NCBI GenBank assembly: GCA_032718475.1
Contig: JAUCBJ010001637.1
Coordinates: forward strand, 1 to 46,219
DNA: 46,219 nt
Origin: Nemertoderma westbladi
Taxonomy: Eukaryota; Animalia; Xenacoelomorpha
Reading direction: 5' to 3'
The notes beneath the pieces are model-generated. The model made no database searches. It was given only the letters and a program-made list of their open reading frames with translations, and was not told where the DNA came from. The translations under genes and the position numbers were made by a program. Of the stretch, positions 10,577-45,792 are shown in pieces. Every line of letters starts with the position of its first letter. Within the stretch, counting starts at the first letter, position 1.

Positions 10577-10731
10577 ATTACGACTTACACGAGGCGACTC
10601 GCAGACAAGAGGAGGACATTCATAACGAAATCGTTTCTACGAGTTTATTAATAAACGGACAGGTGGAATCCTTGGAGAAACTCAAAACAGAGTACATCGG
10701 AGGCGATCCCATATTTATTAACACAATCGAC
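10577..10731 (+). CDS. OTUB1: Otubain coding exon 2
   Basis: Acceptor tttatttag|, donor GAC|GTATGT. DYDLHEATRRQEEDIHNEI...LEKLKTEYIGGDPIFINTID aligns with the OTUB1 segment YDEAIMAQQDRIQQEI...LYKEYAEDDNIYQQKIK. Confidence 0.88.
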
Positions 10732-11717: not shown

Positions 11718-12175
11718 GTCAAGCCCTGGAGGTCTCGTGATTAATAAGGTTATATCACAGTATCACAATGTATTTATACATGGTACAAAGCCAATAAGCA
11801 AGCTACGGTATACACCAATATACTATTAAAGGGTGACCGTTAGCAGTGCAGTACAAGCACTAAATATTTATACATGCAGGGTCTGACAGTACAGTATATC
11901 TGGTAGAATAAAGTAGGTCTAGCTCAGTCTAGGGTCCCCTATAGATCTCGGATCTCCATAGTTAGATTGGGTAATGGGTATGTGTATTAGTTTGGGTATT
12001 ATTTAGATTAGGTCGTAGTTATATCGGGTACTAGTTAGATCGACTAATATAGTTGATTAGTTATTCTAAACTAAACTAAGCCTCAAAAGGTGTATTGACT
12101 ATATTTCACGAATCAACCTTATGCGCAGACTACCTGAAGACCCGAATAATTAATTATATATAACTTGTATTCCAG

Positions 12176-12385
12176 ACCGTTATGAGGATCTACCCATGCA
12201 TGCGTCGTTCCCGTGGGGATGGCAACTGTTTCTTCCGTTCATTTTCCTTCGCTTACTTCGAGCGGCTCATCGGGAATCCGGACCCGGAAGAGTTCGAGAG
12301 ATTCTACGGCGTCATCGAGAAATCACTGGACGAACTGGTCGTGTTGGGATTCCCGAGGTTCACCTGCGAGGACTTCTACTCAACG
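12176..12385 (+). CDS. OTUB1: Otubain coding exon 3 (catalytic Asp/Cys)
   Basis: Acceptor ttgtattccag|, donor ACG|GTGAGT. TVMRIYPCMRRSRGDGNCFFRSFSFAYFE...LGFPRFTCEDFYST matches OTUB1 RKTRPDGNCFYRAF...GFTEFTIEDFHNT. 210 nt, phase 0/0. Confidence 0.95.
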
Positions 12386-15300
12386 GTGAGTTAGTGTAAT
12401 GAGTTCAACTCAACGGTGAGTTAGTGTAAGGACTTCTACTCAACGGTGAGTTAGTGTAAGGAGTTCCAACGGTGAGTTAGTGTAAGGAGTTCTACTCAAC
12501 GGTGAGTTAGTGTAAGGACTTCTACTCAACGGTGAGTTAGTGTAAGGAGTTCAACTCAACGGTGAGTTAGTGTAAGGAGTTTAACTTAACGGTGAGTTAG
12601 TGTAAGGACTTCTACTCAACGGTGAGTTAGTGTAAGGAGTTCTACGCAACGGTGAGTTAGTGTAAGGAGTTCTACTCAACGGTGAGTTAGTGTAAGGAGT
12701 TCTACTCAACGGTGAGTTAGTGTAAAGAGTTATACTCAACGGTGAGTTAGTGTAAGGAGTTCAACTCAACGGTGAGTTAGTGTAAGGAGTTCTACTCAAC
12801 GGTGAGTTAGTGTAAGGAGTTCAACTTAACGGTGAGTTAGTGTAAGGAGTTCAACTCAACGGTGAGTTAGTGTAAGGAGTTCAACTCAACGGTGAGTTAG
12901 TGTAAAGAGTTATACTCAACGGTAAGTTAGTGTAAGGAGTTCTACTTAACGGTGAGTTAGTGTAAGAACTTCTACTCAACGGTGAGTTAGTGTAAGGAGA
13001 AACTCAACGGTGAGTTACTGTAAGGAGTACTACTCAAACGGTGAGTTAGTGTAAGAACTTATACTCAACGGTGAGTTAGTGTAAGGAGTTCTACTCAACG
13101 GTGAGTTAGTGTAAAGAGTTCTACTAAACGGTGAGTTAGTGTAAGGAGTTCTACTCACGGTGAGTTAGTGTATGGAGTTCTACTCAACGGTGAGTTAGTG
13201 TAAAGAGTTCTACTAAACGGTGAGTTAGTGTAAGGAGTTCTACTCACGGTGAGTTAGTGTATGGAGTTCTACTTAACGGTGAGTTAGTGTAAGGAGTTCT
13301 ACTCAACGGTGAGTTACTGTAAGGACTTCTACTCAACGGTGAGTTAGTGTAAGAACTTATACTCAACGGTGAGTTAGTGTAAAGAGTTCTACTAAACGGC
13401 GAGTTAGTGTAAGGAGTTCTACTCACGGTGAGTTAGTGTATGGAGTTCTACTTAACGGTGAGTTAGTGTAAGGAGTTCTACTCAACGGTGAGTTAGTGTA
13501 GGGAGTTCTACTCAACGGTGAGTTAGTGTAAGGAGTTCTACTCAACGGTGAGTTAGTGTAAGAACTTCTACTCAACGGTGAGTTAGTGTAAGGAGTTCTA
13601 CTAAACGGTGAGTTAGTGTAAGGAGTTCTACTCAACGGTGAGTTAGTGTAAGGAGTTCTACTCAACGGTGAGTTAGTGTAAGAACTTCTACTCAACGGTG
13701 AGTTAGTGTAAGGAGTTCTACTAAACGGTGAGTTAGTGTAAGGAGTTCTACTCACGGTGAGTTAGTGTATGGAGTTCTACTTAACGGTGAGTTAGTGTAA
13801 GGAGTTCTACTCAACGGTGAGTTAGTGTAAGGAGTTCTACTTAACGGTGAGTTAGTGTAAGGAGTTTTACTCGACGGTGAGTTAGTGTAAGGAGTTCTAC
13901 TTAACGGTGAGTTAGTGTAAGGAGTTCTACTCGACGGTGAGTTAGTGTAAGGAGTTCTACTTAACGGTGAGTTAGTATAAGGAGTTCTACTCAACGGTGA
14001 GTTAGTGTAAGGAGTTTAACTCAACGGTGAGTTAGTGTAAGGAGTTCTACTCAACGGTGAGTTAGTGTAAGGAGTTCAACTCAACGGTGAGTTAGTGTAA
14101 GGAGTTCTACTCACGGTGAGTTAGTGTAAGGAGTTCTACTCAACGATGAGAAGGACTTCTACTCAACGGTGAATTAGTGTAAGGAGTTCTACTCAACGGT
14201 GAGTTAGTGTAAGGAGTTCTACTCAACGGTGAGTTAGTGTAGGAATTCTCCTAAATGGTGAGGTAAGGAGTTCTACTCGAGGGTGAGTTAGTGTAAGGAC
14301 TTCTACTCAACGGTGAGTTAGTGTAAGAACTTCTACTCAACGGTGAGTTAGTGTAAGGAGTTCTACTCAACGGTGAGTTAGTATATTAATTCTACTTAAC
14401 GGTGAGTTAGTGTAAGGAGTTTTACTCAACGGTGAGTTAGTGTAAGGAGTTCTACTCAAAGGTGAGTTAGTGTAGGAATTCTACTCAACGGTGAGTTAGT
14501 GTAAGGACTTCTACTCAACGGTGAGTTAGTGTAAGAACTTCTACTCAACGGTGAGTTAGTGTAAGGAGTTCAACTCAACGGTGAGTTAGTGTAAGGAGTT
14601 CTACTCAAAGGTGAGTTAGTGTGGTGAGTTATTGTAAGGAGTTCTACTCAACGGTGAGTTAGTGTAAGGACTTCTACTCAACGGTGAGTTAGTGTAAGGA
14701 GTTCTACTCAACGGTGAGTTAGTGTAAGGACTTCTACTCAACGGTGAGTTAGTGTAAGGAGTTCTACTCAACGGTGAGTTAGTTTAAGGAGTTCTACTCA
14801 ACGGTGAGTTAGTGTAAGGAGTTCTACTCAACAATGACTTTGTGTAAGGAGTTCTACTCAACGGTGAGTTAGTGTAAGGAATTCTGCTCAACGGTGAGTT
14901 AGTGTAAAGAGTTCTACTTAACGGTGAGTTAGTGTAAGGAGTTCTACTCAACGGTGCGTTAGTGTAAGGAATTCTACTCAACGGTGAGTTAGTGTAAGGA
15001 GTTATACTCAACGGTGAGTTAGTGTAAGGAGTTCTAAACAACGGTGAGTTAGTGTAAGGAGTTCCAACGGTGAATTAGTGTAAGGAGTTCTACTCAACGG
15101 TGAGTTAATGTAAAGAGTTCTACTCAACGGTGAGTTAGTGTAAGGAGTTCTACTCAACGGTGAGTTAATGTAAGGAGTTCTACTCAACGGTGAGTTAGTG
15201 TAAGGAGTTATACTCAACGGTGAGTTAGTGTAAGGAGTTCTAAACAACGGTGAGTTAGTGTAAGGAGTTCCAACGGTGAATTAGTGTAAGGAGTTCTACT

Positions 15301-18300
15301 CAACGGTGAGTTAATGTAAAGAGTTCTACTCAACGGTGAGTTAGTGTAAGGAGTTCTACTCAACGGTGAGTTAATGTAAGGAGTTCTACTCAACGGTGAG
15401 TTAGTGTAAGGAGTTCTACTCAACGATGAGTTAATGTAAAGAGTTCTACTCAACGGTGAGTTAGTGTAAGGAGTTCTACTCAACGGTGAGTTAATGTAAG
15501 GAGTTCTACTCAACGGTGAGTTAGTGTAAGAACTTCTACTCAACGGTGAGTTAATGTAAGGAGTTCCAACGGTGAGTTATTGTATGGAGTTCTACTCAAC
15601 GGTGAGTTAGTATAAGGACTTCTAATCAACGGTGAGTTAGTGTAAGGAGTTCTACTCAACGATGAGAAGGACTTCTACTCAACGGTGAATTAGTGTAAGG
15701 AGTTCTACTCAACGGTGAGTTAATGTAAAGAGTTCTACTCAACGGTGAGTTAGTGTAAGGAGTTCTACTCAACGGTGAGTTAATGTAAGGAGTTCTACTC
15801 AACGGTGAGTTAGTGTAAGAACTTCTACTCAACGGTGAGTTAATGTAAGGAGTTCCAACGGTGAGTTATTGTATGGAGTTCTACTCAACGGTTTGTTAGT
15901 ATAAGGACTTCTAATCAACGGTGAGTTAGTGTAAGGAGTTCTACTCAACGATGAGAAGGACTTCTACTCAACGGTGAATTAGTGTAAGGAGTTCTACTCA
16001 ACGGTGAGTTAATGTAAAGAGTTCTACTCAACGGTGAGTTAGTGTAAGGAGTTCTACTCAACGGTGAGTTAATGTAAGGAGTTCTACTCAACGGTGAGTT
16101 AGTGTAAGAACTTCTACTCAACGGTGAGTTAATGTAAGGAGTTCCAACGGTGAGTTATTGTATGGAGTTCTACTCAACGGTGAGTTAGTATAAGGACTTC
16201 TAATCAACGGTGAGTTAGTGTAAGGAGTTCTACTCAACGATGAGAAGGACTTCTACTCAACGGTGAATTAGTGTAAGGAGTTCTACTCAACGGTGAGTTA
16301 ATGTAAAGAGTTCTACTCAACGGTGAGTTAGTGTAAGAACTTCTACTCAACGGTGAGTTAATGTAAGGAGTTCTACTCAACGGTGAGTTAGTGTAAGAAC
16401 TTCTACTCAACGGTGAGTTAATGTAAGGAGTTCCAACGGTGAGTTATTGTATGGAGTTCTACTCAACGGTGAGTTAGTATAAGGACTTCTAATCAACGGT
16501 GAGTTAGTGTAAGGAGTTCTACTCAACGATGAGAAGGACTTCTACTCAACGGTGAATTAGTGTAAGGAGTTCTACTCAACGGTGAGTTAATGTAAAGAGT
16601 TCTACTCAACGGTGAGTTAGTGTAAGAACTTCTACTCAACGGTGAGTTAATGTAAGGAGTTCTACTCAACGGTGAGTTAGTGTAAGAACTTCTACTCAAC
16701 GGTGAGTTAATGTAAGGAGTTCTACTCAACGGTGGATTAGTGTAAGGACTTCTACTCAACGGTGAGTTAATGTAAGGAGTTCCAACGATGAGTTAATGTA
16801 AGGAGTTCCAACGGTGAGTTAATGTAAGGAGTTCAACTCAACGGTGAGTTAGTGTAAGGAGTTCCAACGGTGAGTTAATGTAAGGAGTTCTACTCAACGG
16901 TGAGTTAATGTAAGGAGTTCCAACGGTGAGTTAGTGTAAGGAGTTCAACTCAACGGTGAGTTAGTGTAAGGAGTTCTACTCAACGGTGAGTTAGTGTATG
17001 GAGTTCTACTCAACGGTGAGTTAGTGTAAGAACTTCTACTCAACGGTGAGTTAATGTAAGGAGTTCCAACGGTGAGTTAATGTAAGGAGTTCTACTCAAC
17101 GGTGAGTTAGTGTAAGAACTTCTACTCAACGGTGAGTTAATGTAAGGAGTTCCAACGGTGAGTTAATGTAAGGAGTTCTACTCAACGGTGAGTTAGTGTA
17201 AGGAGTTCCAACGGTGAGTTAATGTAAGGAGTTCTACTCAACGGTGAGTTAATGTAAAGAGTTCTACTCAACGGTGAGTTAGTGTAAGAACTTCTACTCA
17301 ACGGTGAGTTAATATAAGGAGTTCTACTCAACGGTGAGTTAGTGTAAGGAGTTCCAACGGTGAGTTAATGTAAGGAGTTCTACTCAACGGTGAGTTAATG
17401 TAAGGAGTTCCAACGATGAGTTAATGTAAGGAGTTCCAACGGTGAGTTAATGTAAGGAGTTCAACTCAACGGTGAGTTACTGTAAGGAGTTCTACTCAAC
17501 GGTGAGTTAATGTAAGGAGTTCTACTCAACGGTGAGTTAGTGTAAGAACTTCTACTCAACGGTGAGTTAATGTAAGGAGTTCCAACGGTGAGTTAATGTA
17601 AGGAGTTCTACTCAACGGTGAGTTAGTGTACGAACTTCTACTCAACGGTGAGTTAATGTAAGGAGTTCCAACGGTGAGTTAATGTAAGGAGTTCTACTCA
17701 ACGGTGAGTTAGTGTAAGGAGTTCCAACGGTGAGTTAATGTAAGGAGTTCTACTCAACGGTGAGTTAATGTAAAGAGTTCTACTCAACGGTGAGTTAGTG
17801 TAAGAACTTCTACTCAACGGTGAGTTAATATAAGGAGTTCTACTCAACGGTGAGTTAGTGTAAGGAGTTCCAACGGTGAGTTAATGTAAGGAGTTCTACT
17901 CAACGGTGAGTTAATGTAAGGAGTTCCAACGATGAGTTAATGTAAGGAGTTCCAACGGTGAGTTAATGTAAGGAGTTCAACTCAACGGTGAGTTAGTGTA
18001 AGGAGTTCTACTCAACGGTGAGTTAATGTAAGGAGTTCCAACGGTGAGTTAGTGTAAGGAGTTCAACTCAACGGTGAGTTACTGTAAGGAGTTCTACTCA
18101 ACGGTGAGTTAATGTAAGGAGTTCTACTCAACGGTGAGTTAGTGTAAGGAGTTCAACTCAACGGTGAGTTACTGTAAGGAGTTCTACTCAACGGTGAGTT
18201 AATGTAAGGAGTTCTACTCAACGGTGAGTTAGTGTAAGAACTTCTACTCAACGGTGAGTTAATGTAAGGAGTTCCAACGGTGAGTTAGTGTAAGGAGTTC

Positions 18301-24300: not shown

Positions 24301-27300
24301 GAGTTAGTGTAAGGAGTTCAACTTAACGGTGAGTTAGTGTAAGGAGTTCAACTTAACGGTGAGTTAGTGTAATGAGTTCAACTCAACGGTGAGTTAGTGT
24401 AAGGAGTTCCAACTGTGAGTTAGTGTAAGGACTTCTACTCAACGGTGAGTTAGTGTAAGGAGTTCTACTCAACGGTGAGTTAGTGTAAGGAGTTCTACTC
24501 AACGGTGAGTTAGTGTAAGGAGTTCTACTCAACGGTGAGTTAGTGTAAGGAGTTCAACTCAACGGTGAGTTAGTGTAAGGACTTTTACTCAACGGTGAGA
24601 TAGTGTAAGGAGTTCTACTCAACGGTGAGTTAGTCTAAGGACTTCTACTCAACGGTGAGTTAGTGTAAGGAGTTCTAACGGTGAGTTAGTGTAAGGAGTT
24701 CTACTCAACGGTGAGTTAGTGTAAGGAGTTCTACTCAACGGTGAGTTAGTGTAAGGAGTTCAACTCAACGGCGAGTTAATGTAAGGAGTTCCAACGGTGA
24801 GTTAGTGTAAGGACTTTTACTCAACGGTGAGTTAGTGTAAGAGTTCTACTCAACGGTGAGTTAGTGTAAGGAGTTCTACTCAACGGTGAGTTAGTGTAAG
24901 GAGTTCTACTCAACGGTGAGTTAGTGTAAGGAGTTCTACTCAACGGTGAGTTAGTGTAAGGAGTTCTACTCAACGGTGAGTTAGTGTAAGGAGTTCAACT
25001 CAACGGCGAGTTAATGTAAGGAGTTCCAACGGTGAGTTAGTGTAAGGACTTTTACTCAACGGTGAGTTAGTGTAAGGAGTTCTACTCAACGGTGAGTTAG
25101 TGTAAGGAGTTCTACTCAACGGTGAGTTAGTGTAAGGAGTTCTACTCAACGGTGAGTTAGTGTAAGGAGTTCCAACGGTGAGTTAGTGTAAGGACTTTTA
25201 CTCAACGGTGAGTTAGTGTAAGGAGTTCTACTCAACGGTGAGTTAGTGTAAGGAGTTCTACTCAACGGTGAGTTAGTGTAAGGAGTTCTACTCAACGGTG
25301 AGTTAGTGTAAGGAGTTCTACTCAACGGTGAGTTAGTGTAAGGAGTTCCAACGGTGAGTTACTGTAAGGAGTTCAACTTAACGGTGAGTTAGTGTAAGGA
25401 GTTCCAACGGTGAGTTAGTGTAAGGAGTTCTACTCAACGGTGAGTTAGTGTAAGGAGTTCTACTCAACGGTGAGTTAGTGTAAGGAGTTCCAACGGTGAG
25501 TTAGTGTAAGGAGTTATACTCAACGGTGAGTTAGTGTAAGAACTTCTACTCAACGGTGAGTTAATGTAAGGAGTTCCAACGGTGAGTTAGTGTAAGGAGT
25601 TCCAACGGTGAGTTACTGTAAGGAGTTCAACTTAACGGTGAGTTAGTGTAAGGAGTTCTACTCACGGTGAGTTAGTGTATGGAGTTCAACTTAACGGTGA
25701 GTTAGTGTAAGGTGTTCAACTCAACGATGAGTTAATGTAAGGAGTTCCAACGGTGAGTTAGTGTAAGGAGTTCTACTCAACGGTGAGTTAGTGTAAGGAG
25801 TTCTACTCAACGGTGAGTTAGTGTAAGGAGTTCCAACGGTGAGTTAGTGTAAGGAGTTCTACTCAACGATGAGTTACTGTAAGGAGTTCAACTCAACGGT
25901 GAGTTAGTGTAAGGAGTTCTACTCAACGGTGAGTTAATGTAAGGCGTTCCAACGGTGAGTTAGTGTAAGGAGTTCAACTTAACGGTGAGTTAGTGTAAGG
26001 AGTTCAACTTAACGGTGAGTTAGTGTAATGAGTTCAACTCAACGGTGAGTTAGTGTAAGGAGTTCCAACTGTGAGTTAGTGTAAGGACTTCTACTCAACG
26101 GTGAGTTAGTGTAAGGAGTTCTACTCAACGGTGAGTTAGTGTAAGGAGTTCTACTCAACGGTGAGTTAGTGTAAGGAGTTCTACTCAACGGTGAGTTAGT
26201 GTAAGGAGTTCAACTCAACGGTGAGTTAGTGTAAGGACTTTTACTCAACGGTGAGATAGTGTAAGGAGTTCTACTCAACGGTGAGTTAGTGTAAGGACTT
26301 CTACTCAACGGTGAGTTAGTGTAAGGAGTTCTAACGGTGAGTTAGTGTAAGGAGTTCTACTCAACGGTGAGTTAGTGTAAGGAGTTCTACTCAACGGTGA
26401 GTTAGTGTAAGGAGTTCCAACGGTGAGTTAGTGTAAGGAGTTCTACTCAACGGTGAGTTAGTGTAAGGACTTCTACTCAACGGTGAGTTAGTGTAAGGAG
26501 TTCTAACGGTGAGTTAGTGTAAGGAGTTCTACTCAACGGTGAGTTAGTGTAAGGAGTTCTACTCAACGGTGAGTTAGTGTAAGGAGTTCCAACGGTGAGT
26601 TAGTGTAAGGAGTTCTACTCAACGGTGAGTTAGTGTAAGGAGTTCAACTCAACGGCGAGTTAATGTAAGGAGTTCCAACGGTGAGTTAGTGTAAGGACTT
26701 TTACTCAACGGTGAGTTAGTGTAAGGAGTTCTACTCAACGGTGAGTTAGTGTAAGGAGTTCTACTCAACGGTGAGTTAGTGTAAGGAGTTCTACTCAACG
26801 GTGAGTTAGTGTAAGGAGTTCTACTCAACGGTGAGTTAGTGTAAGGAGTTCTACTCAACGGTGAGTTAGTGTAAGGAGTTCAACTCAACGGCGAGTTAAT
26901 GTAAGGAGTTCCAACGGTGAGTTAGTGTAAGGACTTTTACTCAACGGTGAGTTAGTGTAAGGAGTTCTACTCAACGGTGAGTTAGTGTAAGGAGTTCTAC
27001 TCAACGGTGAGTTAGTGTAAGGAGTTCTACTCAACGGTGAGTTAGTGTAAGGAGTTCCAACGGTGAGTTAGTGTAAGGACTTTTACTCAACGGTGAGTTA
27101 GTGTAAGGAGTTCTACTCAACGGTGAGTTAGTGTAAGGAGTTCTACTCAACGGTGAGTTAGTGTAAGGAGTTCTACTCAACGGTGAGTTAGTGTAAGGAG
27201 TTCTACTCAACGGTGAGTTAGTGTAAGGAGTTCCAACGGTGAGTTAGTGTAAGGACTTTTACTCAACGGTGAGTTAGTGTAAGGAGTTCTACTCAACGGT

Positions 27301-30300
27301 GAGTTAGTGTAAGGAGTTCTACTCAACGGTGAGTTAGTGTAAGGAGTTCTACTCAACGGTGAGTTAGTGTAAGGAGTTCAACTCAACGGTGAGTTAATGT
27401 AAGGAGTTCCAACGGTGAGTTAGTGTAAGGACTTCTACTCAACGGTGAGTTAGTGTAAGGACTTCTACTCAACGGTGAGTTAGTGTAAGGAGTTCTACTC
27501 AACGGTGAGTTAGTGTAAGGAGTTCTACTCAACGGTGAGTTAGTGTAAGGAGTTCTACTCAACGGTGAGTTAGTGTAAGAACTTCTACTCAACGGTGAGT
27601 TAATGTAAGGAGTTCCAACTGTGAGTTAGTGTAAGGACTTCTACTCAACGGTGAGTTACTGTAAGGAGTTCTACTCAACGGTGAGTTAGTGTAAGGAGTT
27701 CCAACGGTGAGTTACTGTAAGGAGTTCCAACGGTGAGTTAGTGTAAGGAGTTATACTCAACGGTGAGTTAGTGTAAGGAGTTCCAACGGTGAGTTACTGT
27801 AAGGAGTTCCAACGGTGAGTTAGTGTAAGGAGTTATACTCAACGGTGAGTTAGTGTAAGGACTTCTACTCAACGGTGAGTTAATGTAAGGAGTTCCAACG
27901 GTGAGTTAGTGTAAGGACTTCTACTCAACGGTGAGTTACTGTAAGGAGTTCTACTCAACGGTGAGTTAGTGTAAGGAGTTCTACTCAACGGTGAGTTAAT
28001 GTAAGGAGTTCCAACGGTGAGTTAGTGTAAGGAGTTCAACTCAACGGTGAGTTACTGTAAGGACTTCAACTCAACGGTGAGTTAGTGTAAGGAGTTCAAC
28101 TCAACGGTGAGTTACTGTAAGGAGTTCAACTCAACGGTGAGTTAGTGTAAGGAGTTCTACACAACGGTGAGTTAGTGTAAGGACTTCTACTCAACGGTGA
28201 GTTAATGTAAGGAGTTCTACACAACGGTGAGTTAATGTAAGGAGTTCCAACGGTGAGTTAATGTAAGGAGTTCCAACGGTGAGTTAGTGTAAGGAGTTAT
28301 ACTCAACGGTGAGTTAGTGTAAGGAGTTCCAACGGTGAGTTAATGTAAGGAGTTCCAACGGTGAGTTAGTGTAAGGACTTCTACTCAACGGTGAGTTAGT
28401 GTAAGGAGTTCTACTCAACGGTGAGATAGTGTAAGGAGTTCTACTCAACGGTGAGTTAGTGTAAGGAGTTCAACTCAACGGTGAGTTAATGTAAGGAGTT
28501 CCAACGGTGAGTTAGTGTAAGGACTTCTACTCAACGGTGAGTTAGTGTAAGGAGTTATACTCAACGGTGAGTTAGTGTAAGGAGTTCTACTCAACGGTGA
28601 GTTAGTGTACGGACTTCTACTCAACGGTGAGTTAATGTAAGGAGTTAAACTCAACGATGAGTTAGTGTAAGGAGTTCTACTCAACGGTGAGATAGTGTAA
28701 GGAGTTCTACTCAACGGTGAGTTAGTGTAAGGAGTTCAACTAAACGGTGAGTTAATGTAAGGAGTTCCAACGGTGAGTTAGTGTAAGGACTTCTACTCAA
28801 CGGTGAGTTAGTGTAAGGAGTTATACTCAACGGTGAGTTAGTGTAAGGAGTTCTACTCAACGGTGAGTTAGTGTACGGACTTCTACTCAACGGTGAGTTA
28901 ATGTAAGGAGTTCAACTCAACGGTGAGTTAGTGTAAGGAGTTCTACTCAACGGTGAGTTAGTGTAAGGAGTTCTACTCAACGGTGAGTTAGTGTAAGAAG
29001 TTCCAACGGTGAGTTAGTGTAAGGAGTTCTACTCAACGGTGAGTTAGTGTAAGGAGTTCCAACGGTGAGTTAGTGTAAGGAGTTCTACTCAACGGTGAGT
29101 TAGTGTAAGGAGTTCTACTCAACGGTGAGTTAGTGTAAGAAGTTCCAACGGTGAGTTAGTGTAAGGAGTTCTACTCAACGGTGAGTTAGTGTAAGGAGTT
29201 CCAACGGTGAGTTAGTGTAAGGAGTTCTACTCAACGGTGAGTTCGTGTAAGGAGTTCTACTCAACGGTGAGTTAGTGTAAGAAGTTCCAACGGTGAGTTA
29301 GTGTAAGGAGTTCTACTCAACGGTGAGTTAGTGTAAGGAGTTCCAACGGTGAGTTAGTGTAAGGACTTCTACTCAACGGTGAGTTAGTGTAAGGAGTTCT
29401 ACTAAACGGTGAGTTAATGTAAGGAGTTCCAACGGTGAGTTAATGTAAGGAGTTCTACTCAACGGTGAGTTAGTGTAAGGAGTTCTACTCAACGGTGAGT
29501 TAGTGTAAGAAGTTCCAACGGTGAGTTAGTGTAAGGAGTTCTACTCAACGGTGAGTTAGTGTAAGGAGTTCCAACGGTGAGTTAGTGTAAGGACTTCTAC
29601 TCAACGGTGAGTTAGTGTAAGGACTTCTACTCAACGGTGAGTTAGTGTAAGGACTTCTACTCAACGGTGAGTTAGTGTAAGGACTTCTACTCAACGGTGA
29701 GTTAGTGTAAGGACTTCTACTCAACGGTGAGTTAGTGTAAGGAGTTCTACTAAACGGTGAGTTAATGTAAGGCGTTCCAACGGTGAGTTAGTGTAAGGAG
29801 TTCAACTTAACGGTGAGTTAATGTAAGGAGTTCCAACGGTGAGTTACTGTAAGGAGTTCCAACGGTGAGTTAGTGTAAGGAGTTATACTCAACGGTGAGT
29901 TAGTGTAAGGACTTCTACTCAACGGTGAGTTAATGTAAGGAGTTCCAACGGTGAGTTAGTGTAAGGAGTTCTACTCAACGGTGAGTTAGTGTAAGGAGTT
30001 CTACTCAACGGTGAGTTAGTGTAAGGAGTTCTACTCAACGGTGAGTTAGTGTATGGAGTTCTACTCAACGGTGAGTTAGTGTAAGGAGTTCTACTCAACG
30101 GTGAGTTAGTGTAAGGAGTTCTACTCAACGGTGAGTTAGTGTAAGAACTTCTACTCAACGGTGAGTTAATGTAAGGAGTTCCAACTGTGAGTTAGTGTAA
30201 GGACTTCTACTCAACGGTGAGTTACTGTAAGGAGTTCTACTCAACGGTGAGTTAGTGTAAGGAGTTCTACTCAACGGTGAGTTAATGTAAGGAGTTCCAA

Positions 30301-33300
30301 CGGTGAGTTAGTGTAAGGAGTTCAACTCAACGGTGAGTTACTGTAAGGAGTTCAACTCAACGGCGAGTTAATGTAAGGAGTTCCAACGGTGAGTTAGTGT
30401 AAGGACTTTTACTCAACGGTGAGTTAGTGTAAGGAGTTCTACTCAACGGTGAGTTAGTGTAAGGAGTTCTACTCAACGGTGAGTTAGTGTAAGGAGTTCT
30501 ACTCAACGGTGAGTTAGTGTAAGGAGTTCTACTCAACGGTGAGTTAGTGTAAGGAGTTCTACTCAACGGTGAGTTAGTGTAAGGAGTTCAACTCAACGGC
30601 GAGTTAATGTAAGGAGTTCCAACGGTGAGTTAGTGTAAGGACTTTTACTCAACGGTGAGTTAGTGTAAGGAGTTCTACTCAACGGTGAGTTAGTGTAAGG
30701 AGTTCTACTCAACGGTGAGTTAGTGTAAGGAGTTCTACTCAACGGTGAGTTAGTGTAAGGAGTTCCAACGGTGAGTTAGTGTAAGGACTTTTACTCAACG
30801 GTGAGTTAGTGTAAGGAGTTCTACTCAACGGTGAGTTAGTGTAAGGAGTTCTACTCAACGGTGAGTTAGTGTAAGGAGTTCTACTCAACGGTGAGTTAGT
30901 GTAAGGAGTTCTACTCAACGGTGAGTTAGTGTAAGGAGTTCCAACGGTGAGTTAGTGTAAGGACTTTTACTCAACGGTGAGTTAGTGTAAGGAGTTCTAC
31001 TCAACGGTGAGTTAGTGTAAGGAGTTCTACTCAACGGTGAGTTAGTGTAAGGAGTTCTACTCAACGGTGAGTTAGTGTAAGGAGTTCAACTCAACGGTGA
31101 GTTAATGTAAGGAGTTCCAACGGTGAGTTAGTGTAAGGACTTCTACTCAACGGTGAGTTAGTGTAAGGACTTCTACTCAACGGTGAGTTAGTGTAAGGAG
31201 TTCTACTCAACGGTGAGTTAGTGTAAGGAGTTCTACTCAACGGTGAGTTAGTGTAAGGAGTTCTACTCAACGGTGAGTTAATGTAAGGAGTTCCAACTGT
31301 GAGTTAGTGTAAGGACTTCTACTCAACGGTGAGTTACTGTAAGGAGTTCTACTCAACGGTGAGTTAGTGTAAGGAGTTCCAACGGTGAGTTACTGTAAGG
31401 AGTTCCAACGGTGAGTTAATGTAAGGAGTTCCAACGGTGAGTTAGTGTAAGGAGTTCTACTCAACGGTGAGTTAGTGTAAGGAGTTCCAACGGTGAGTTA
31501 ATGTAAGGAGTTCCAACGGTGAGTTAGTGTAAGGACTTCTACTCAACGGTGAGTTAGTGTAAGGAGTTCTACTCAACGGTGAGATAGTGTAAGGAGTTCT
31601 ACTCAACGGTGTGTTAGTGTAAGGAGTTCAACTCAACGGTGAGTTAATGTAAGGAGTTCCAACGGTGAGTTAGTGTAAGGACTTCTACTCAACGGTGAGT
31701 TAGTGTAAGGAGTTATACTCAACGGTGAGTTAGTGTAAGGAGTTCTACTCAACGGTGAGTTAGTGTACGGACTTCTACTCAACGGTGAGTTAATGTAAGG
31801 AGTTAAACTCAACGATGAGTTAGTGTAAGGAGTTCTACTCAACGGTGAGATAGTGTAAGGAGTTCTACTCAACGGTGAGTTAGTGTAAGGAGTTCAACTA
31901 AACGGTGAGTTAATGTAAGGAGTTCCAACGGTGAGTTAGTGTAAGGACTTCTACTCAACGGTGAGTTAGTGTAAGGAGTTATACTCAACGGTGAGTTAGT
32001 GTAAGGAGTTCTACTCAACGGTGAGTTAGTGTACGGACTTCTACTCAACGGTGAGTTAATGTAAGGAGTTCAACTCAACGGTGAGTTAGTGTAAGGAGTT
32101 CTACTCAACGGTGAGTTAGTGTAAGGAGTTCTACTCAACGGTGAGTTAGTGTAAGAAGTTCCAACGGTGAGTTAGTGTAAGGAGTTCTACTCAACGGTGA
32201 GTTAGTGTAAGGAGTTCCAACGGTGAGTTAGTGTAAGGAGTTCTACTCAACGGTGAGTTAGTGTAAGGAGTTCTAACGGTGAGTTAGTGTAAGGAGTTCT
32301 ACTCAACGGTGAGTTAGTGTAAGGAGTTCTACTCAACGGTGAGTTAGTGTAAGGAGTTCCAACGGTGAGTTAGTGTAAGGAGTTCTACTCAACGGTGAGT
32401 TAGTGTAAGGAGTTCAACTCAACGGCGAGTTAATGTAAGGAGTTCCAACGGTGAGTTAGTGTAAGGACTTTTACTCAACGGTGAGTTAGTGTAAGGAGTT
32501 CTACTCAACGGTGAGTTAGTGTAAGGAGTTCTACTCAACGGTGAGTTAGTGTAAGGAGTTCTACTCAACGGTGAGTTAGTGTAAGGAGTTCTACTCAACG
32601 GTGAGTTAGTGTAAGGAGTTCTACTCAACGGTGAGTTAGTGTAAGGAGTTCAACTCAACGGCGAGTTAATGTAAGGAGTTCCAACGGTGAGTTAGTGTAA
32701 GGACTTTTACTCAACGGTGAGTTAGTGTAAGGAGTTCTACTCAACGGTGAGTTAGTGTAAGGAGTTCTACTCAACGGTGAGTTAGTGTAAGGAGTTCTAC
32801 TCAACGGTGAGTTAGTGTAAGGAGTTCCAACGGTGAGTTAGTGTAAGGACTTTTACTCAACGGTGAGTTAGTGTAAGGAGTTCTACTCAACGGTGAGTTA
32901 GTGTAAGGAGTTCTACTCAACGGTGAGTTAGTGTAAGGAGTTCTACTCAACGGTGAGTTAGTGTAAGGAGTTCTACTCAACGGTGAGTTAGTGTAAGGAG
33001 TTCCAACGGTGAGTTAGTGTAAGGACTTTTACTCAACGGTGAGTTAGTGTAAGGAGTTCTACTCAACGGTGAGTTAGTGTAAGGAGTTCTACTCAACGGT
33101 GAGTTAGTGTAAGGAGTTCTACTCAACGGTGAGTTAGTGTAAGGAGTTCAACTCAACGGTGAGTTAATGTAAGGAGTTCCAACGGTGAGTTAGTGTAAGG
33201 ACTTCTACTCAACGGTGAGTTAGTGTAAGGACTTCTACTCAACGGTGAGTTAGTGTAAGGAGTTCTACTCAACGGTGAGTTAGTGTAAGGAGTTCTACTC

Positions 33301-36300
33301 AACGGTGAGTTAGTGTAAGGAGTTCTACTCAACGGTGAGTTAGTGTAAGAACTTCTACTCAACGGTGAGTTAATGTAAGGAGTTCCAACTGTGAGTTAGT
33401 GTAAGGACTTCTACTCAACGGTGAGTTACTGTAAGGAGTTCTACTCAACGGTGAGTTAGTGTAAGGAGTTCCAACGGTGAGTTACTGTAAGGAGTTCCAA
33501 CGGTGAGTTAGTGTAAGGAGTTATACTCAACGGTGAGTTAGTGTAAGGAGTTCCAACGGTGAGTTACTGTAAGGAGTTCCAACGGTGAGTTAGTGTAAGG
33601 AGTTATACTCAACGGTGAGTTAGTGTAAGGACTTCTACTCAACGGTGAGTTAATGTAAGGAGTTCCAACGGTGAGTTAGTGTAAGGACTTCTACTCAACG
33701 GTGAGTTACTGTAAGGAGTTCTACTCAACGGTGAGTTAGTGTAAGGAGTTCTACTCAACGGTGAGTTAATGTAAGGAGTTCCAACGGTGAGTTAGTGTAA
33801 GGAGTTCAACTCAACGGTGAGTTACTGTAAGGACTTCAACTCAACGGTGAGTTAGTGTAAGGAGTTCAACTCAACGGTGAGTTACTGTAAGGAGTTCAAC
33901 TCAACGGTGAGTTAGTGTAAGGAGTTCTACACAACGGTGAGTTAGTGTAAGGACTTCTACTCAACGGTGAGTTAATGTAAGGAGTTCTACACAACGGTGA
34001 GTTAATGTAAGGAGTTCCAACGGTGAGTTAATGTAAGGAGTTCCAACGGTGAGTTAGTGTAAGGAGTTCTACTCAACGGTGAGTTAGTGTAAGGAGTTCC
34101 AACGGTGAGTTAATGTAAGGAGTTCCAACGGTGAGTTAGTGTAAGGACTTCTACTCAACGGTGAGTTAGTGTAAGGAGTTCTACTCAACGGTGAGATAGT
34201 GTAAGGAGTTCTACTCAACGGTGAGTTAGTGTAAGGAGTTCAACTCAACGGTGAGTTAATGTAAGGAGTTCCAACGGTGAGTTAGTGTAAGGACTTCTAC
34301 TCAACGGTGAGTTAGTGTAAGGAGTTATACTCAACGGTGAGTTAGTGTAAGGAGTTCTACTCAACGGTGAGTTAGTGTACGGACTTCTACTCAACGGTGA
34401 GTTAATGTAAGGAGTTAAACTCAACGATGAGTTAGTGTAAGGAGTTCTACTCAACGGTGAGATAGTGTAAGGAGTTCTACTCAACGGTGAGTTAGTGTAA
34501 GGAGTTCAACTAAACGGTGAGTTAATGTAAGGAGTTCCAACGGTGAGTTAGTGTAAGGACTTCTACTCAACGGTGAGTTAGTGTAAGGAGTTATACTCAA
34601 CGGTGAGTTAGTGTAAGGAGTTCTACTCAACGGTGAGTTAGTGTACGGACTTCTACTCAACGGTGAGTTAATGTAAGGAGTTCAACTCAACGGTGAGTTA
34701 GTGTAAGGAGTTCTACTCAACGGTGAGTTAGTGTAAGGAGTTCTACTCAACGGTGAGTTAGTGTAAGAAGTTCCAACGGTGAGTTAGTGTAAGGAGTTCT
34801 ACTCAACGGTGAGTTAGTGTAAGGAGTTCCAACGGTGAGTTAGTGTAAGGAGTTCTACTCAACGGTGAGTTAGTGTAAGGAGTTCTACTCAACGGTGAGT
34901 TAGTGTAAGAAGTTCCAACGGTGAGTTAGTGTAAGGAGTTCTACTCAACGGTGAGTTAGTGTAAGGAGTTCCAACGGTGAGTTAGTGTAAGGAGTTCTAC
35001 TCAACGGTGAGTTCGTGTAAGGAGTTCTACTCAACGGTGAGTTAGTGTAAGAAGTTCCAACGGTGAGTTAGTGTAAGGAGTTCTACTCAACGGTGAGTTA
35101 GTGTAAGGAGTTCCAACGGTGAGTTAGTGTAAGGACTTCTACTCAACGGTGAGTTAGTGTAAGGAGTTCTACTAAACGGTGAGTTAATGTAAGGAGTTCC
35201 AACGGTGAGTTAATGTAAGGAGTTCTACTCAACGGTGAGTTAGTGTAAGGAGTTCTACTCAACGGTGAGTTAGTGTAAGAAGTTCCAACGGTGAGTTAGT
35301 GTAAGGAGTTCTACTCAACGGTGAGTTAGTGTAAGGAGTTCCAACGGTGAGTTAGTGTAAGGACTTCTACTCAACGGTGAGTTAGTGTAAGGACTTCTAC
35401 TCAACGGTGAGTTAGTGTAAGGACTTCTACTCAACGGTGAGTTAGTGTAAGGACTTCTACTCAACGGTGAGTTAGTGTAAGGACTTCTACTCAACGGTGA
35501 GTTAGTGTAAGGAGTTCTACTAAACGGTGAGTTAATGTAAGGCGTTCCAACGGTGAGTTAGTGTAAGGAGTTCAACTTAACGGTGAGTTAATGTAAGGAG
35601 TTCCAACGGTGAGTTACTGTAAGGAGTTCCAACGGTGAGTTAGTGTAAGGAGTTATACTCAACGGTGAGTTAGTGTAAGGACTTCTACTCAACGGTGAGT
35701 TAATGTAAGGAGTTCCAACGGTGAGTTAGTGTAAGGAGTTCTACTCAACGGTGAGTTAGTGTAAGGAGTTCTACTCAACGGTGAGTTAGTGTAAGGAGTT
35801 CTACTCAACGGTGAGTTAGTGTATGGAGTTCTACTCAACGGTGAGTTAGTGTAAGGAGTTCTACTCAACGGTGAGTTAGTGTAAGGAGTTATACTCAACG
35901 GTGAGTTAGTGTAAGAACTTCTACTCAACGGTGAGTTAATGTAAGGAGTTCCAACTGTGAGTTAGTGTAAGGACTTCTACTCAACGGTGAGTTACTGTAA
36001 GGAGTTCTACTCAACGGTGAGTTAGTGTAAGGAGTTCTACTCAACGGTGAGTTAATGTAAGGAGTTCCAACGGTGAGTTAGTGTAAGGAGTTCAACTCAA
36101 CGGTGAGTTACTGTAAGGAGTTCAACTCAACGGTGAGTTAGTGTAAGGAGTTCAACTCAACGGTGAGTTAGTGTAAGGAGTTATACTCAACGGTGAGTTA
36201 GTGTAAGGAGTTCTACTCAACGGTGAGTTAGTGTAAGAACTTCTACTCAACGGTGAGTTAATGTAAGGAGTTCCAACTGTGAGTTAATGTAAGGAGTTCC

Positions 36301-39300: not shown

Positions 39301-42300
39301 AGTGTAAGGAGTTCTACTCAACGGTGAGTTAGTGTAAGGATTTCTACTCAACGGTGAGTTAGTGTAAGGAGTTCTACTCAACGGTGAGTTAGTGTAAGAA
39401 CTTCTACTCAACGGTGAGTTAATGTAAGGAGTTCCAACTGTGAGTTAGTGTAAGGACTTCTACTCAACGGTGAGTTAGTGTAAGGAGTTCAACTCAACGG
39501 TGAGTTAGTGTAAGGACTTTTACTCAACGGTGAGATAGTGTAAGGAGTTATACTCAACGGTGAGTTAGTGTAAGGACTTCTACTCAACGGTGAGTTAATG
39601 TAAGGAGTTCCAACGGTGAGTTAGTGTAAGGAGTTCTACTCAACGGTGAGTTAGTGTAAGGAGTTCAACTCAACGGTGAGTTAGTGTAAGGAGTTCAACT
39701 CAACGGTGAGTTAGTGTAAGGAGTTCTACACAACGGTGAGTTAGTGTAAGGAGTTCTACACAACGGTGTGTTAGTGTAAGGAGTTAATTACTCAACGGTG
39801 AGTTAGTGTAAGGAGTTCTACTCAACGGTGAGTTAGTGTAAGGAGTTCCAACGGTGAGTTAGTGTAAGGAGTTATACTCAACGGTGAGTTAGTGTAAGGA
39901 GTTCTACTCAACGGTGAGTTAGTGTAAGGAGTTCTACTCAACGGTGAGTTAGTGTAAGAACTTCTACTCAACGGTGAGTTAATGTAAGGAGTTCCAACGG
40001 TGAGTTAGTGTAAGGAGTTCCAACGGTGAGTTAGTGTAAGGAGTTCTACTCAACGGTGAGTTAGTGTAAGGAGTTCAACTTAACGGTGAGTTAGTGTAAG
40101 GAGTTCTACTCAACGGTGAGTTATTGTAAGGAGTTCTACTCAACGGTGAGTTAGTGTAAGGAGTTCTACTCAACGGTGAGTTAGTGTAAGGAGTTCTACT
40201 CAACGGTGAGTTAGTGTAAGAACTTCTACTCAACGGTGAGTTAATGTAAGGAGTTCCAACGGTGAGTTAGTGTAAGGAGTTCAACTCAACGGTGAGTTAG
40301 TGTAAGGAGTTCTACTCAACGGTGAGTTAGTGTAAGGAGTTCTACTCAACGGTGAGTTAGTGTAAGGAGTTCTACTCAACGGTGAGTTAGTGTAAGGAGT
40401 TCTACTCAACGGTGAGTTAGTGTAAGGAGTTCTACTCAACGGTGAGTTAGTGTAAGGAGTTCTACTCAACGGTGAGTTAGTGTAAGGAGTTCAACTCAAC
40501 GGTGAGTTAGTGTAAGGAGTTCTACTCAACGGTGAGTTAGTGTAAGGAGTTCCAACGGTGAGTTAGTGTAAGGAGTTATACTCAACGGTGAGTTAGTGTA
40601 AGGAGTTCTACTCAACGGTGAGTTAGTGTAAGGAGTTCTACTCAACGGTGAGTTAGTGTAAGGACTTCTACTCAACGGTGAGTTAGTGTAAGGAGTTCTA
40701 CTCAACGGTGAGTTAGTGTAAGGAGTTCACTCAACGGTGAGTTAGTGTAAGGAGTTCTACTCAACGGTGAGTTAGTGTAAGGAGTTCCAACGGTGAGTTA
40801 GTGTAAGGAGTTCTACTCAACGGTGAGTTAGTGTAAGGAGTTCACTCAACGGTGAGTTAGTGTAAGGAGTTCTACTCAACGGTGAGTTAGTGTAAGGAGT
40901 TCTACTCAACGGTGAGTTAGTGTAAGGAGTTCTACTCAACGGTGAGTTAGTGTAAGGAGTTCTACTCAACGGTGAGTTAGTGTAAGGAGTTCCAACGGTG
41001 AGTTAGTGTAAGGAGTTCTACTCAACGGTGAGTTAGTGTAAGGAGTTCTACTCAACGGTGAGTTAGTGTAAGGAGTTCTACTCAACGGTGAGTTAGTGTA
41101 AGAACTTCTACTCAACGGTGAGTTAATGTAAGGAGTTCCAACGGTGAGTTAGTGTAAGGAGTTCTACTCAACGGTGAGTTAGTGTAAGGAGTTCTACTCA
41201 ACGGTGAGTTAGTGTAAGGAGTTCTACTCAACGGTGAGTTAGTGTAAGGACTTCTACTCAACGGTGAGTTAATGTAAGGAGTTCCAACGGTGAGTTAGTG
41301 TAAGGAGTTCTACTCAACGGTGAGTTAGTGTAAGGAGTTCTACTCAACGGTGAGTTAGTGTAAGGAGTTCTACTCAACGGTGAGTTAGTGTAAGGAGTTC
41401 TACTCAACGGTGAGTTAGTGTAAGGAGTTCTACTCAACGGTGAGTTAGTGTAAGGAGTTCCAACGGTGAGTTAGTGTAAGGACTTCTACTCAACGGTGAG
41501 TTAATGTAAGGAGTTCCAACGGTGAGTTAGTGTAAGGAGTTCCAACGGTGAGTTAGTGTAAGGAGTTCTACTCAACGGTGAGTTAGTGTAAGGAGTTCTA
41601 CTCAACGGTGAGTTAGTGTAAGGAGTTCCAACGGTGAGTTAGTGTAAGGAGTTCTACTCAACGGTGAGTTAGTGTAAGGAGTTCTACTCAACGGTGAGTT
41701 AGTGTAAGGAGTTCTACTCAACGGTGAGTTAGTGTAAGGAGTTCTACTCAACGGTGAGTTAGTGTAAGGAGTTCTACTCAACGGTGAGTTAGTGTAAGGA
41801 GTTCCAACGGTGAGTTAGTGTAAGGAGTTCTACTCAACGGTGAGTTAGTGTAAGGAGTTCTACCAACGGTGAGTTAGTGTAAGGAGTTCTACTCAACGGT
41901 GAGTTAGTGTAAGGACTTCTACTCAACGGTGAGTTAATGTAAGGAGTTCCAACGGTGAGTTAGTGTAAGGAGTTCTACTCAACGGTGAGTTAGTGTAAGG
42001 AGTTCTACTCAACGGTGAGTTAGTGTAAGGAGTTCTACTCAACGGTGAGTTAGTGTAAGGAGTTCTACGCAACGGTGAGTTAGTGTAAGGACTTCTACTC
42101 AACGGTGAGTTAATGTAAGGAGTTCCAACGGTGAGTTAGTGTAAGGAGTTCCAACGGTGAGTTAGTGTAAGGACTTCTACTCAACGGTGAGTTAATGTAA
42201 GGAGTTCCAACGGTGAGTTAGTGTAAGGAGTTCCCAACGGTGAGTTAGTGTAAGGAGTTCTACTCAACGGTGAGTTAGTGTAAGGAGTTCTACTCAACGG

Positions 42301-44387
42301 TGAGTTAGTGTAAGGAGTTCCAACGGTGAGTTAGTGTAAGGAGTTCTACTCAACGGTTAGTTAGTGTAAGGAGTTCCAACGGTGAGTTAGTGTAAGGAGT
42401 TCCAACGGTGAGTTAGTGTAAGGAGTTCTACTCAACGGTGAGTTAGTGTAAGGAGTTCTACTCAACGGTGAGTTAATGTAAGGAGTTCCAACGGTGAGTT
42501 AGTGTAAGGAGTTCTACTCAACGGTGAGTTAGTGTAAGGAGTTCCAACGGTGAGTTAGTGTAAGGAGTTCCAACGGTGAGTTAGTGTAAGGAGTTCTACT
42601 CAACGGTGAGTTAGTGTAAGGAGTTCTACTCAACGGTGAGTTAGTGTAAGGAGTTCCAACGGTGAGTTAGTGTAAGGAGTTCTACTCAACGGTGAGTTAG
42701 TGTAAGGAGTTCTACTCAACGGTTAGTTAGTGTAAGGAGTTCCAACGGTGAGTTAGTGTATGGAGTTCTACTCAACGGTGAGTTAATGTAAGGAGTTCCA
42801 ACTGTGAGTTAGTGTAAGGAGTTCAACTCAACGGTGAGTTAGTGTAAGGAGTTCTACTCAACAGTGAGTTAATGTAAGGAGTTCCAACGGTGAGTTAGTG
42901 TAAGGAGCTCAACTCAACGGTGAGTTAGTGTAAGGAGTTATACTCAACGGTGAGTTAGTGTAAGGAGTTCTACTCAACGGTGAGTTAGTGTAAGGAGTTC
43001 TACTCAACGGTGAGTTAGTGTAAGGAGTTCTACTCAACGGTGAGTTAGTGTAAGGAGTTCCAACGGTGAGTTAGTGTAAGGACTTCTACTCAACGGTGAG
43101 TTAATGTAAGGAGTTCCAACGGTGAGTTAGTGTAAGGAGTTCCAACGGTGAGTTAGTGTAAGGAGTTCTACTCAACGGTGAGTTAGTGTAAGGAGTTCCA
43201 ACGGTGAGTTAGTGTAAGGAGTTCCAACGGTGAGTTAGTGTAAGGAGTTCCAACGGTGAATTAGTGTAAGGAGTTCTACTCAACGGTGAGTTAGTGTAAG
43301 GAGTTCTACTCAACGGTGAGTTAGTGTAAGGAGTTCCAACGGTGAGTTAGTGTAAGGAGTTCCAACGGTGAGTTAGTGTAAGGAGTTCTACTCAACGGTG
43401 AGTTAGTGTAAGGAGTTCTACTCAACGGTGAGTTAGTGTAAGGAGTTCCAACGGTGAGTTAGTGTAAGGAGTTCTACTCAACGGTGAGTTAGTGTAAGGA
43501 GTTCTACTAAACGGTGAGTTAGTGTAAGGAGTTCTACTCAACGGTTAGTTAGTGTAAGGAGTTCCAACGGTGAGTTAGTGTAAGGAGTTATACTCAACGG
43601 TGAGTTAGTGTAAGGAGTTCTACTCAACGGTGAGTTAGTGTAAGGAGTTCAACTCAACGGTGAGTTAGTGTAAGGAGTTCTACGCAACGGTTAGTTAGTG
43701 TAAGGAGTTCTACTCAACGGTGAGTTAGTGTAAGGAGTTCTACTCAACGGTTAGTTAGTGTAAGGAGTTCAACTCAACGGTGAGTTACTGTAAGGAGTTC
43801 CAACGGTGAGTTAGTGTAAGGAGTTCCAACGGTGAGTTAGTGTAAGGAGTTCCAACGGTGAGTTAGTGTAAGGAGTTCCAACGGTGAGTTAGTGTAAGGA
43901 GTTCTACTCAACGGTTAGTTAGTGTAAGGAGTTCCAACGGTGAGTTAGTGTAAGGAGTTCCAACGGTGAGTTAGTGTAAGGAGTTCTACTCAACGGTGAG
44001 TTAGTGTAAGGAGTTCTACTCAACGGTTAGTTAGTGTAAGGAGTTCCAACGGTGAGTTAGTGTAAGGAGTTCTACTCAACGGTTAGTTAGTGTAAGGAGT
44101 TCTACTCAACGGTGAGTTAGTGTAAGGAGTTCTACTCAACGGTGAGTTAATGTAAGGAGTTCAACTCAACGGTGAGTTAATGTAAGGAGTTCTACTCAAC
44201 GGTGAGTTAGTGTAAGGAGTTCCAACGGTGAGTTAGTGTAAGGAGTTCTACTCAACGGTGAGTTAGTGTAAGGAGTTCCAACGGTGAGTTAGTGTAAGGA
44301 GTTCTACTCAACGGTGAGTTAGTGTAAGGAGTTCCAACGGTGAGTTAGTGTAAGGAGTTCCAACGGTGAGTTAGTAGTGTAAGGACT
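12369..44387 (+). repeat. 32-kb intronic satellite: 30-bp unit AGGAGTTCTACTCAACGGTGAGTTAGTGTA with a common 26-bp variant lacking TACT; roughly 1,100 copies
   Basis: Directly visible uninterrupted array. The first unit overlaps the last 17 nt of exon 3. Copy number is estimated from length. Confidence 0.99.
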
Positions 44388-44582
44388 AATATATTTCTAA
44401 ACGGTGAATTCCATTTTCATTGATTGCTATTTTCCACTATTTTTTAAATGTTGTTTAAATTGTTGCATTATTTTCCGACAGTTCAGCACGCATCATAGAA
44501 TTATAAAAGATTTACCATTACAAACGTAGTTGATATGATATTATCATAACTAATTAATATATTTAATCACATTTCGTTTTAG

Positions 44583-44774
44583 TTTCTGTCTGTTCTTAAC
44601 GAACTCAAGACTTGTACACTTGACGATCTGGTAACGAAGATGAATGACCAATGTTTATCGGATTATATTGTAGTTTATTTACGACTTATCGTATCCGGTT
44701 ACCTTCAAACCAATCAGGAATTCTTTACGGCTTTCATAGAAGGGGGTCGAACAGTGAAAGAATTCTGTCAGATG
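44583..44774 (+). CDS. OTUB1: Otubain coding exon 4
   Basis: Acceptor tttcgttttag|, donor ATG|GTAAGT. FLSVLNELKTCTLDDLVTKMNDQCLSDYIVVYLRLIVSGYLQTNQEFFTAFIEGGRTVKEFCQM continues directly from exon 3 in the OTUB1 alignment. Missing from the ORF track. Confidence 0.95.
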
Positions 44775-45573: not shown

Positions 45574-45792
45574 GAAGTTGAGCCGATGAATAGGGAGTCC
45601 GACCACATCCACATAATAGCGGTGAGTTCGGCGCTGGCGGTGGGCATACGAATAGTTTACCTGGACCGTACCGGGTCTGGTATCCAGGAACACACCTTCC
45701 CAGACGATAAACCCCCCAGTGTTACTCTACTCTACCGACCCGGCCATTACGACGTACTCTACTCTAAGGAGACGCCATCTAACCCCGCTTAG
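45574..45792 (+). CDS. OTUB1: Otubain coding exon 5 (catalytic His, stop codon)
   Basis: Acceptor ttaattacag|. EVEPMNRESDHIHIIAVSSAL...YLDR...LLYRPGHYDVLY...TAG. Confidence 0.95.
   Translation, partial: EVEPMNRESDHIHIIAVSSALAVGIRIVYLDRTGSGIQEHTFPDDKPPSVTLLYRPGHYDVLYSKETPSNPA

Follow-up and report, generated by a model that had tools for sequence, protein, structure and literature searches.

A donor-spanning minisatellite of about 1,100 units in the third intron of an otubain gene of Nemertoderma westbladi

The third intron of an otubain gene of Nemertoderma westbladi consists largely of a minisatellite whose unit spans the junction of exon 3 and intron 3, so that the splice donor of the gene is repeated about 1,100 times. 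The gene lies on contig JAUCBJ010001637.1 (assembly GCA_032718475.1), of which positions 1 to 46,219 of the forward strand were studied; this whole stretch of 46,219 nucleotides is called the window. The array belongs to a known class, the donor-spanning minisatellites of the F7 and CBS type, or 'mirage' minisatellites; it is the largest that we found, with about 2.6 times the copies of that in ABCA7, and not a new mechanism. In our view, the array is probably a minisatellite copied from the junction within an intact otubain gene, where it is tolerated through commitment to the first donor and through a stop codon in its first unit that would send mRNAs made from later donors to decay.

The otubain gene and its transcript

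Five exons separated by GT-AG introns were modelled on the forward strand of the window. Together they form an open frame of 336 amino acids, and the four introns measure 671, 1,444, 32,197 and 799 nt. Exon 3 (12176 to 12385, 210 nt) carries a GDGNC motif, exon 4 extends from 44583 to 44774, and the coding part of exon 5 (45574 to 45792) carries a GHYD motif and the stop codon. Each of these three exons matched the Pfam family Peptidase_C65 separately and above the cut-off (E=8.8e-18, 6.3e-16 and 3.2e-22, respectively), and both motifs aligned with those of solved otubains, exon 3 with otubains in the PDB and exon 5 with OTUB1 chains. We take GDGNC to be the catalytic-cysteine motif and GHYD to be the catalytic-histidine motif. 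Judged from its sequence, the host gene is an otubain (Peptidase C65) with an open frame and both the Cys and the His motifs, and the earlier impression that all of the exons look intact was borne out by this frame and by the Pfam matches. When exon 3 was used to search for homologues, 2 of 23 candidates were weak otubain matches, and an Atlas search gave otubain clusters of mixed taxa.

Four public data sets (X1 to X4) were compared with positions 11720 to 12480 of the window at the level of contigs. X1 is possibly the source of the window, X2 and X3 come from one other sample (S2), and X4 yielded one record (one of one aligned), a contig of 1,153 nt at a depth of 3,779 that covers 12176 to 12385 only, which is the whole of exon 3; within the compared region X4 had no depth on intron 2 or on the array. 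The 30 unaligned letters of this contig before 12176 are the last 30 nt of exon 2 (10577 to 10731), and those after 12385 are the first 30 nt of exon 4, so that the contig runs from exon 2 through exon 3 to exon 4 with a junction from 12385 to 44583. The 429 nt that it holds 5' of exon 3 equal 155 + 235 + 39 and fit a predicted exon 1 (9671 to 9905, from ATG to CAG|GT), which was placed by the open frame that it shares with exons 2 to 5, the contig itself not being aligned onto it. The total length fits five exons plus untranslated regions of 39 and 103 nt, and the expected share of words (0.29) is close to that listed (0.28). Because its cover consists of exons only, X4 was read as complementary DNA (cDNA). 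These findings support the view that the otubain gene is transcribed and that its first donor is joined to exon 4, as seen in one cDNA-like data set from another haplotype. The original prediction had allowed for an untranscribed locus, and the spliced contig speaks against that.

Anatomy of the array

Tandem Repeats Finder (TRF) reported one array on the forward strand, from 12369 to 44375, with a period of 30, 1100.9 copies and 89% matches, and anchoring on the intron half of the unit gave 1,093 units. The two counts agree with each other and with the earlier estimate of about 1,100 copies of a junction unit of 17 + 13 nt. Unit 1 (12369 to 12398) takes its sequence from both sides of the junction, 17 nt from the end of exon 3 and 13 nt from the start of intron 3. 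A 26-bp variant accompanies the 30-bp unit: 821 of the unit spacings are 30 nt and 242 are 26 nt, the latter being the deleted form. We counted 113 distinct unit types, and the longest gap between units is 60 nt, from which it follows that the array holds no foreign insertion. It makes up 88% of the modelled otubain pre-mRNA.

The authentic donor of intron 3 (GTGAGT, 12386 to 12391) is the first of about 1,093, and it is after 12385 that the X4 contig departs from the window. The exact donor 9-mer ACG|GTGAGT is present in 1,010 of the 1,093 units and the GT in 1,070; the 14.2 kb of the window outside the array contain no copy of the 9-mer. The donors had been described as lying in almost native context; this holds for the 9-mer but not for the exon end, since the full 17 nt stand exactly and directly before GTGAGT in 88 copies only, the dominant unit differs from the native exon end by C>G at -13, and the 26-nt spacings mark shortened units. 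Neither AATAAA nor ATTAAA is present in the 32-kb array.

Downstream, the array ends in a decayed terminal unit (44376 to 44410) that starts with the hexamer AGGACT as unit 1 does; the hexamer lies at 12369 and 44382, at both ends of the array. The unique, AT-rich rest of the intron (44411 to 44582) leads to the acceptor TTTTAG, and intron 3 without the array would be about 200 nt long. Nested higher-order blocks measuring between 289 and 5,770 bp were found within the array. Among them, a block of 3,650 bp (26471 to 30120) recurs 5,770 bp downstream (32241 to 35890) with one mismatch, which could be the product of a very recent unequal exchange or a duplicate introduced by the assembly.

Presence and length of the array in other data sets

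The unique-flank contigs of X1, X2 and X3 pass through exon 3 and end at 12398, the exact end predicted by a de Bruijn model of the window. In addition, a contig of X2 at single-copy depth matches 12377 to 12430 without a difference, which indicates that S2 has the same first units as the window. Thus, the array begins at the junction of exon 3 and intron 3 in two DNA samples. In X1, single repeat contigs stood at up to 51 times the unique depth, and in X3 at up to 46 times, illustrating that the repeat is amplified in both samples.

The length of the array is another matter. For a 32-kb array, the simulated repeat-to-unique signal ranged from 8,400 to 466,000 (55-fold) depending on a length filter that is unknown, and an absolute size therefore cannot be derived from depth. 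The summed signal, which is not a copy number, was about 138,500 in X1 and some 10 times lower in X2 (13,100) and X3 (14,900), and one exact contig of X3 stood at 14 times the unique depth against 67 predicted from the window. These depths hint that the array of S2 is 5-10 times shorter than that of the window.

It is very unlikely that a genuine but much shorter array was over-expanded to 32 kb by the assembly. Such an error would fit the 3,650-bp block that is present twice with one mismatch, the fact that no listed contig spans the whole array, the wide simulated range against which the value of X1 was compared, and a repeat signal in S2 of about one-tenth of that in X1. Nevertheless, 72% of the 300-mers and all of the 2,000-mers within the array occur just once, and no exact repeat inside it is longer than 1,828 bp, which argues against wholesale over-expansion, as does the number of unit types. 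The signal of X1 also falls within the range simulated for 32 kb, and one X1 contig stood at 50.8 times the unique depth where one candidate sequence of the window predicted 50.3, a match that is compatible with the length and no more, other candidates predicting 205 to 277. Owing to the 3,650-bp duplicate and the missing spanning contig, the exact length of the array is less sure than its existence.

An in-frame stop ahead of every later donor

Intron 3 is a phase 0 intron that opens with GTG AGT TAG, and its third codon past exon 3 (12392 to 12394, +7 to +9 of the intron) is therefore an in-frame stop, which was overlooked by the original prediction. When mRNAs spliced from donors 2, 3, 4, 11 and 1092 were modelled and translated, all of the products ended at 202 amino acids; they lose the catalytic His, and the stop lies upstream of two junctions. 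A stop codon upstream of exon junctions makes an mRNA a target of nonsense-mediated decay (NMD), and the mRNAs made from downstream donors would be such targets. By analogy, NMD is likely to hide mis-splicing to these donors.

This bears on the earlier claim that the spliceosome must pick the first donor. The X4 contig does join 12385 to 44583, but junctions at steady state cannot show that the first donor alone is chosen: every downstream-donor mRNA is a nonsense mRNA, so precise choice and choice followed by decay look alike in steady-state RNA. The letters 5' of the shared 17 nt would tell the junctions apart, these being exon 3 sequence for the first donor and GTGAGTTAGTGTA for downstream donors. 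X4 has a T at 12199, as S2 does, while the window and X1 have a C; the change is synonymous in exon 3, and this single-nucleotide polymorphism can serve as a phasing marker for allele-specific RNA work. Over about 680 bp between 11720 and 12385, each contig of S2 departs from the window at 32 gap positions and by 6 substitutions, nearly all of them in intron 2.

Comparison with known donor-spanning repeats

Three features place the array in the known class. First, unit 1 straddles the junction 12385|12386 that is used by X4. Second, the donor is repeated head to tail through intron 3, with the exact 9-mer in most of the units. Third, the most upstream donor is still the one that is spliced, as seen in one X4 contig from the other haplotype. 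The novelty that the original prediction implied cannot be upheld, because F7, CBS, 6-16, ABCA7 and the lancelet 'mirages' share the arrangement. In the literature that we searched, whose coverage largely leaves out subscription journals, no donor-spanning array larger than that of ABCA7 was found. The unit pattern had no matches in metagenome contigs, a result that is uninformative for an animal locus.

In F7, intron 7 carries a 37-bp variable number tandem repeat (VNTR), and the most upstream of its identical donors was reported to be used (PMC1557585, Borensztajn et al. 2006). The same report lists 25 pseudo-sites for 6-16, 15-20 for CBS (intron 13), 10-15 for LMNB2 and 16-18 for PDGF; the first donor only is used in F7, LMNB2 and PDGF, and the next two are also used in 6-16 and CBS (PMC1557585). 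The earlier statement that competing donors normally cause alternative splicing thus does not describe F7, LMNB2 and PDGF. As in F7, the first unit of the otubain array crosses the exon-intron boundary and identical donors follow the real one, and it is because the most upstream identical donor wins in F7 that first-donor choice is inferred for otubain (PMC1557585). The copies differ widely, 5-25 in the F7 group against about 1,100 here, and, whereas mutation of the first site in F7 showed the pseudo-sites to be functional, some of them with an open frame, those of otubain are all preceded by a stop.

The closest array in size is the VNTR in intron 18 of ABCA7, with a 25-bp unit that includes the exon 18 donor and up to about 427 units (10,678 bp) (PMC5954066, De Roeck et al. 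2018). Both arrays have a short unit with the donor of the preceding exon and large alleles. The ABCA7 unit starts at the GT, while that of otubain also carries 17 nt of exon, and the otubain array is 3 times as long. According to this report, the second unit of ABCA7 is used in about 2% of cases independently of array length and gives an NMD-sensitive nonsense transcript, while skipping of the next exon depends on length and expression is lowered (PMC5954066). These effects of length on expression and exon skipping were measured in ABCA7.

An ABCA7-like reading would make the long otubain allele mildly harmful or regulatory, with array length setting how much otubain is made, whether by skipping of exon 4, by slowed transcription or by NMD of mRNAs spliced from downstream donors. 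We regard it as unlikely. It draws on the lower expression and more frequent next-exon skipping of longer ABCA7 alleles, on the 5-10 fold difference between alleles at which depth hints, and on the stop in unit 1, which would conceal flux through downstream donors; moreover, exon 4 has 192 nt and phase 0-0 and can therefore be skipped in frame. The X4 contig, by contrast, retains exon 4 and is unbroken over the junction, although that evidence of splicing comes from another haplotype than the long allele, and second-donor use in ABCA7 was independent of length. In its specific form, in which alleles of about 100-200 and about 1,100 donors segregate and the long one loses fidelity through a ladder of donors or an exon 4 skip, hidden by NMD, so that length acts as a dial of otubain dose, the idea seems doubtful to us as well. 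Were it true, one could measure where first-come donor choice reaches its limit, and nuclear suppression would be separable from cytoplasmic decay of latent-donor products.

Three further systems are related to the array. The lancelet 'mirage' minisatellites, described in Adh3, the globins BflGb6 and BflGb9, troponin C and PGBD5 (PMC3087553, PMC3902484), are likewise tandem duplications of an invertebrate exon-intron boundary that are unstable in length and reportedly leave regular splicing unaffected. That of BflGb6 has 3-6 units; the otubain array exceeds it by two orders of magnitude and shows higher-order structure. Latent 5' splice sites that lie behind an in-frame stop are normally absent from mRNA, which has been termed 'suppression of splicing' (PMC3510495). 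The otubain donors resemble them as intronic consensus donors behind an in-frame stop; unlike the cases in that report, they repeat the real donor about 1,000 times. Finally, genes of the Drosophila Y chromosome have giant introns filled with satellites (PMC11207136). There, too, an intron takes up nearly the whole gene span and co-transcriptional splicing is likely needed, but those introns are of megabase scale, and the abstract does not describe units derived from a junction (PMC11207136).

Probable origin and tolerance of the array

The end of exon 3 aligns to conserved otubain residues (EDFYS vs EDFFS), which suggests that the repeat was derived from the gene rather than the reverse. The proposed gene-derived origin draws on an exonic half that encodes conserved residues and on a 9-mer absent elsewhere in the window. 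The array may have started as a local 30-bp duplication across the junction, perhaps primed by AGGACT at both ends, the copy at 44382 being possibly a slippage microhomology or a worn edge copy. It would then have grown by slippage and unequal exchange, as the nested blocks suggest. The intron 2 array described below is unrelated in sequence and intron 1 holds a local duplication, suggesting a general tendency to duplicate.

First-donor choice could be achieved by exon definition over the 210-nt exon 3 and by U1, which would keep the first donor on the polymerase; an upstream donor was reported to be tethered to the polymerase via U1 (PMC8316553). By analogy with such systems, exon definition or first-come selection is the likely reason for the use of the first donor. 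A few per cent of transcripts might use donor 2 or 3 and be removed by NMD, as for ABCA7, and the array would be neutral, with a length that differs between individuals. Selection for or against donors was not detected across the units: positions with >5% variants number 0 of 9 in the donor 9-mer and 6 of 21 in the rest of the unit (Fisher p=0.14), and substitution alleles per position are 1.22 at donor positions and 1.43 elsewhere in the unit.

Several observations weigh against a neutral array that is tolerated through first-donor commitment and decay. The read evidence covers the 5' edge of the array, and the 3' edge rests on the assembly. X4 is labelled 'DNA?' in its listing, so that its status as cDNA is our reading and not the label. 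Its haplotype differs from that of the window, and the allele spliced there may be a short one. Contigs drop rare variants, and minor use of other donors would escape notice. The lack of any high-frequency variant in the donor 9-mer is a weak hint of constraint, albeit a non-significant one. NMD and polymerase tethering would, moreover, be mechanisms carried over from other systems.

We also considered whether the array is a selected device, namely a sink for the U1 small nuclear ribonucleoprotein (snRNP), a U1 track by which transcription is protected or accelerated, or a supply of recursive sites or microexons. With 1,070 GT-intact units and 32 kb free of both poly(A) signals, the sequence might be read in this way, and 728 units have the form of TAAG, 15 nt and GTGAGT, on paper an in-frame microexon of five codons. 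Nevertheless, we give this explanation hardly any credence. AG|GT was found in only 2 of the 1,093 units, and pyrimidine runs do not exceed 5 nt save one of 7 nt; hence recursive sites and acceptors are lacking. Recursive splicing of the intron was ruled out on these grounds, as was microexon splicing (15-nt exons between 15-nt GT-AG spacers), which has no pyrimidine tract to rely on and is not used at the X4 junction. The missing poly(A) signals follow from the unit sequence itself, and the length of the array seems free to vary. The U1 pool is about 10^6 per mammalian cell, and that of Nemertoderma may differ; the number of sites held by one locus at any moment would be of order 10^4, which is small against such a pool. 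The sink proposed in the original prediction is not supported. Masking of the decoy donors by RNA structure was rejected separately, since the fold of 12300 to 12560 is no more stable than shuffled sequences (z=-0.35).

Other features of the window

A second array, found by TRF in intron 2 on the forward strand (10736 to 11717), consists of a 16-bp unit repeated 64 times and begins at +5 of that intron's donor. It lacks exon sequence, and such donor-like sites as it has are weak; like the array of intron 3, it is G-skewed on the sense strand and contains GTTAG. Two neighbouring introns thus both open with an array. Upstream of the gene, a 28-bp unit is repeated 8 times at 6062 to 6281, and a stretch before exon 1 is repeated at 9272 and 9376.

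On the reverse strand, 3787 to 5730 holds stop-to-stop frames of 187 and 459 amino acids in the same frame with one stop between them. The longer frame had a weak match to HECT (PF00632, E=3e-5), and the region resembles a HECT-like gene without introns that is possibly broken. Inverted arms at about 350 to 530 and 3570 to 3760, with exact blocks of 54 and 51 bp, flank about 3.4 kb with internal direct repeats, and this segment (about 350 to 3760) is possibly a non-autonomous DNA element. Two similar fragments, at 7757 to 8077 (reverse strand) and about 46020 to 46219, presumably resemble the end of the reverse transcriptase of a long interspersed nuclear element of the RTE type; Pfam gave no match for either.

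Implications

With about 1,100 copies, in a gene that is expressed and has an open frame, the otubain array raises the known upper size of donor-spanning minisatellites, which stood at about 430 copies in ABCA7. Should the long allele be spliced as cleanly as that of X4, the first donor would be chosen against 1,000 identical competitors and across 32 kb, and commitment at transcription would therefore be favoured over choice at the acceptor. Because one stop precedes every later donor, the locus also offers a clean substrate for distinguishing latent donors that are suppressed from those whose products are decayed.

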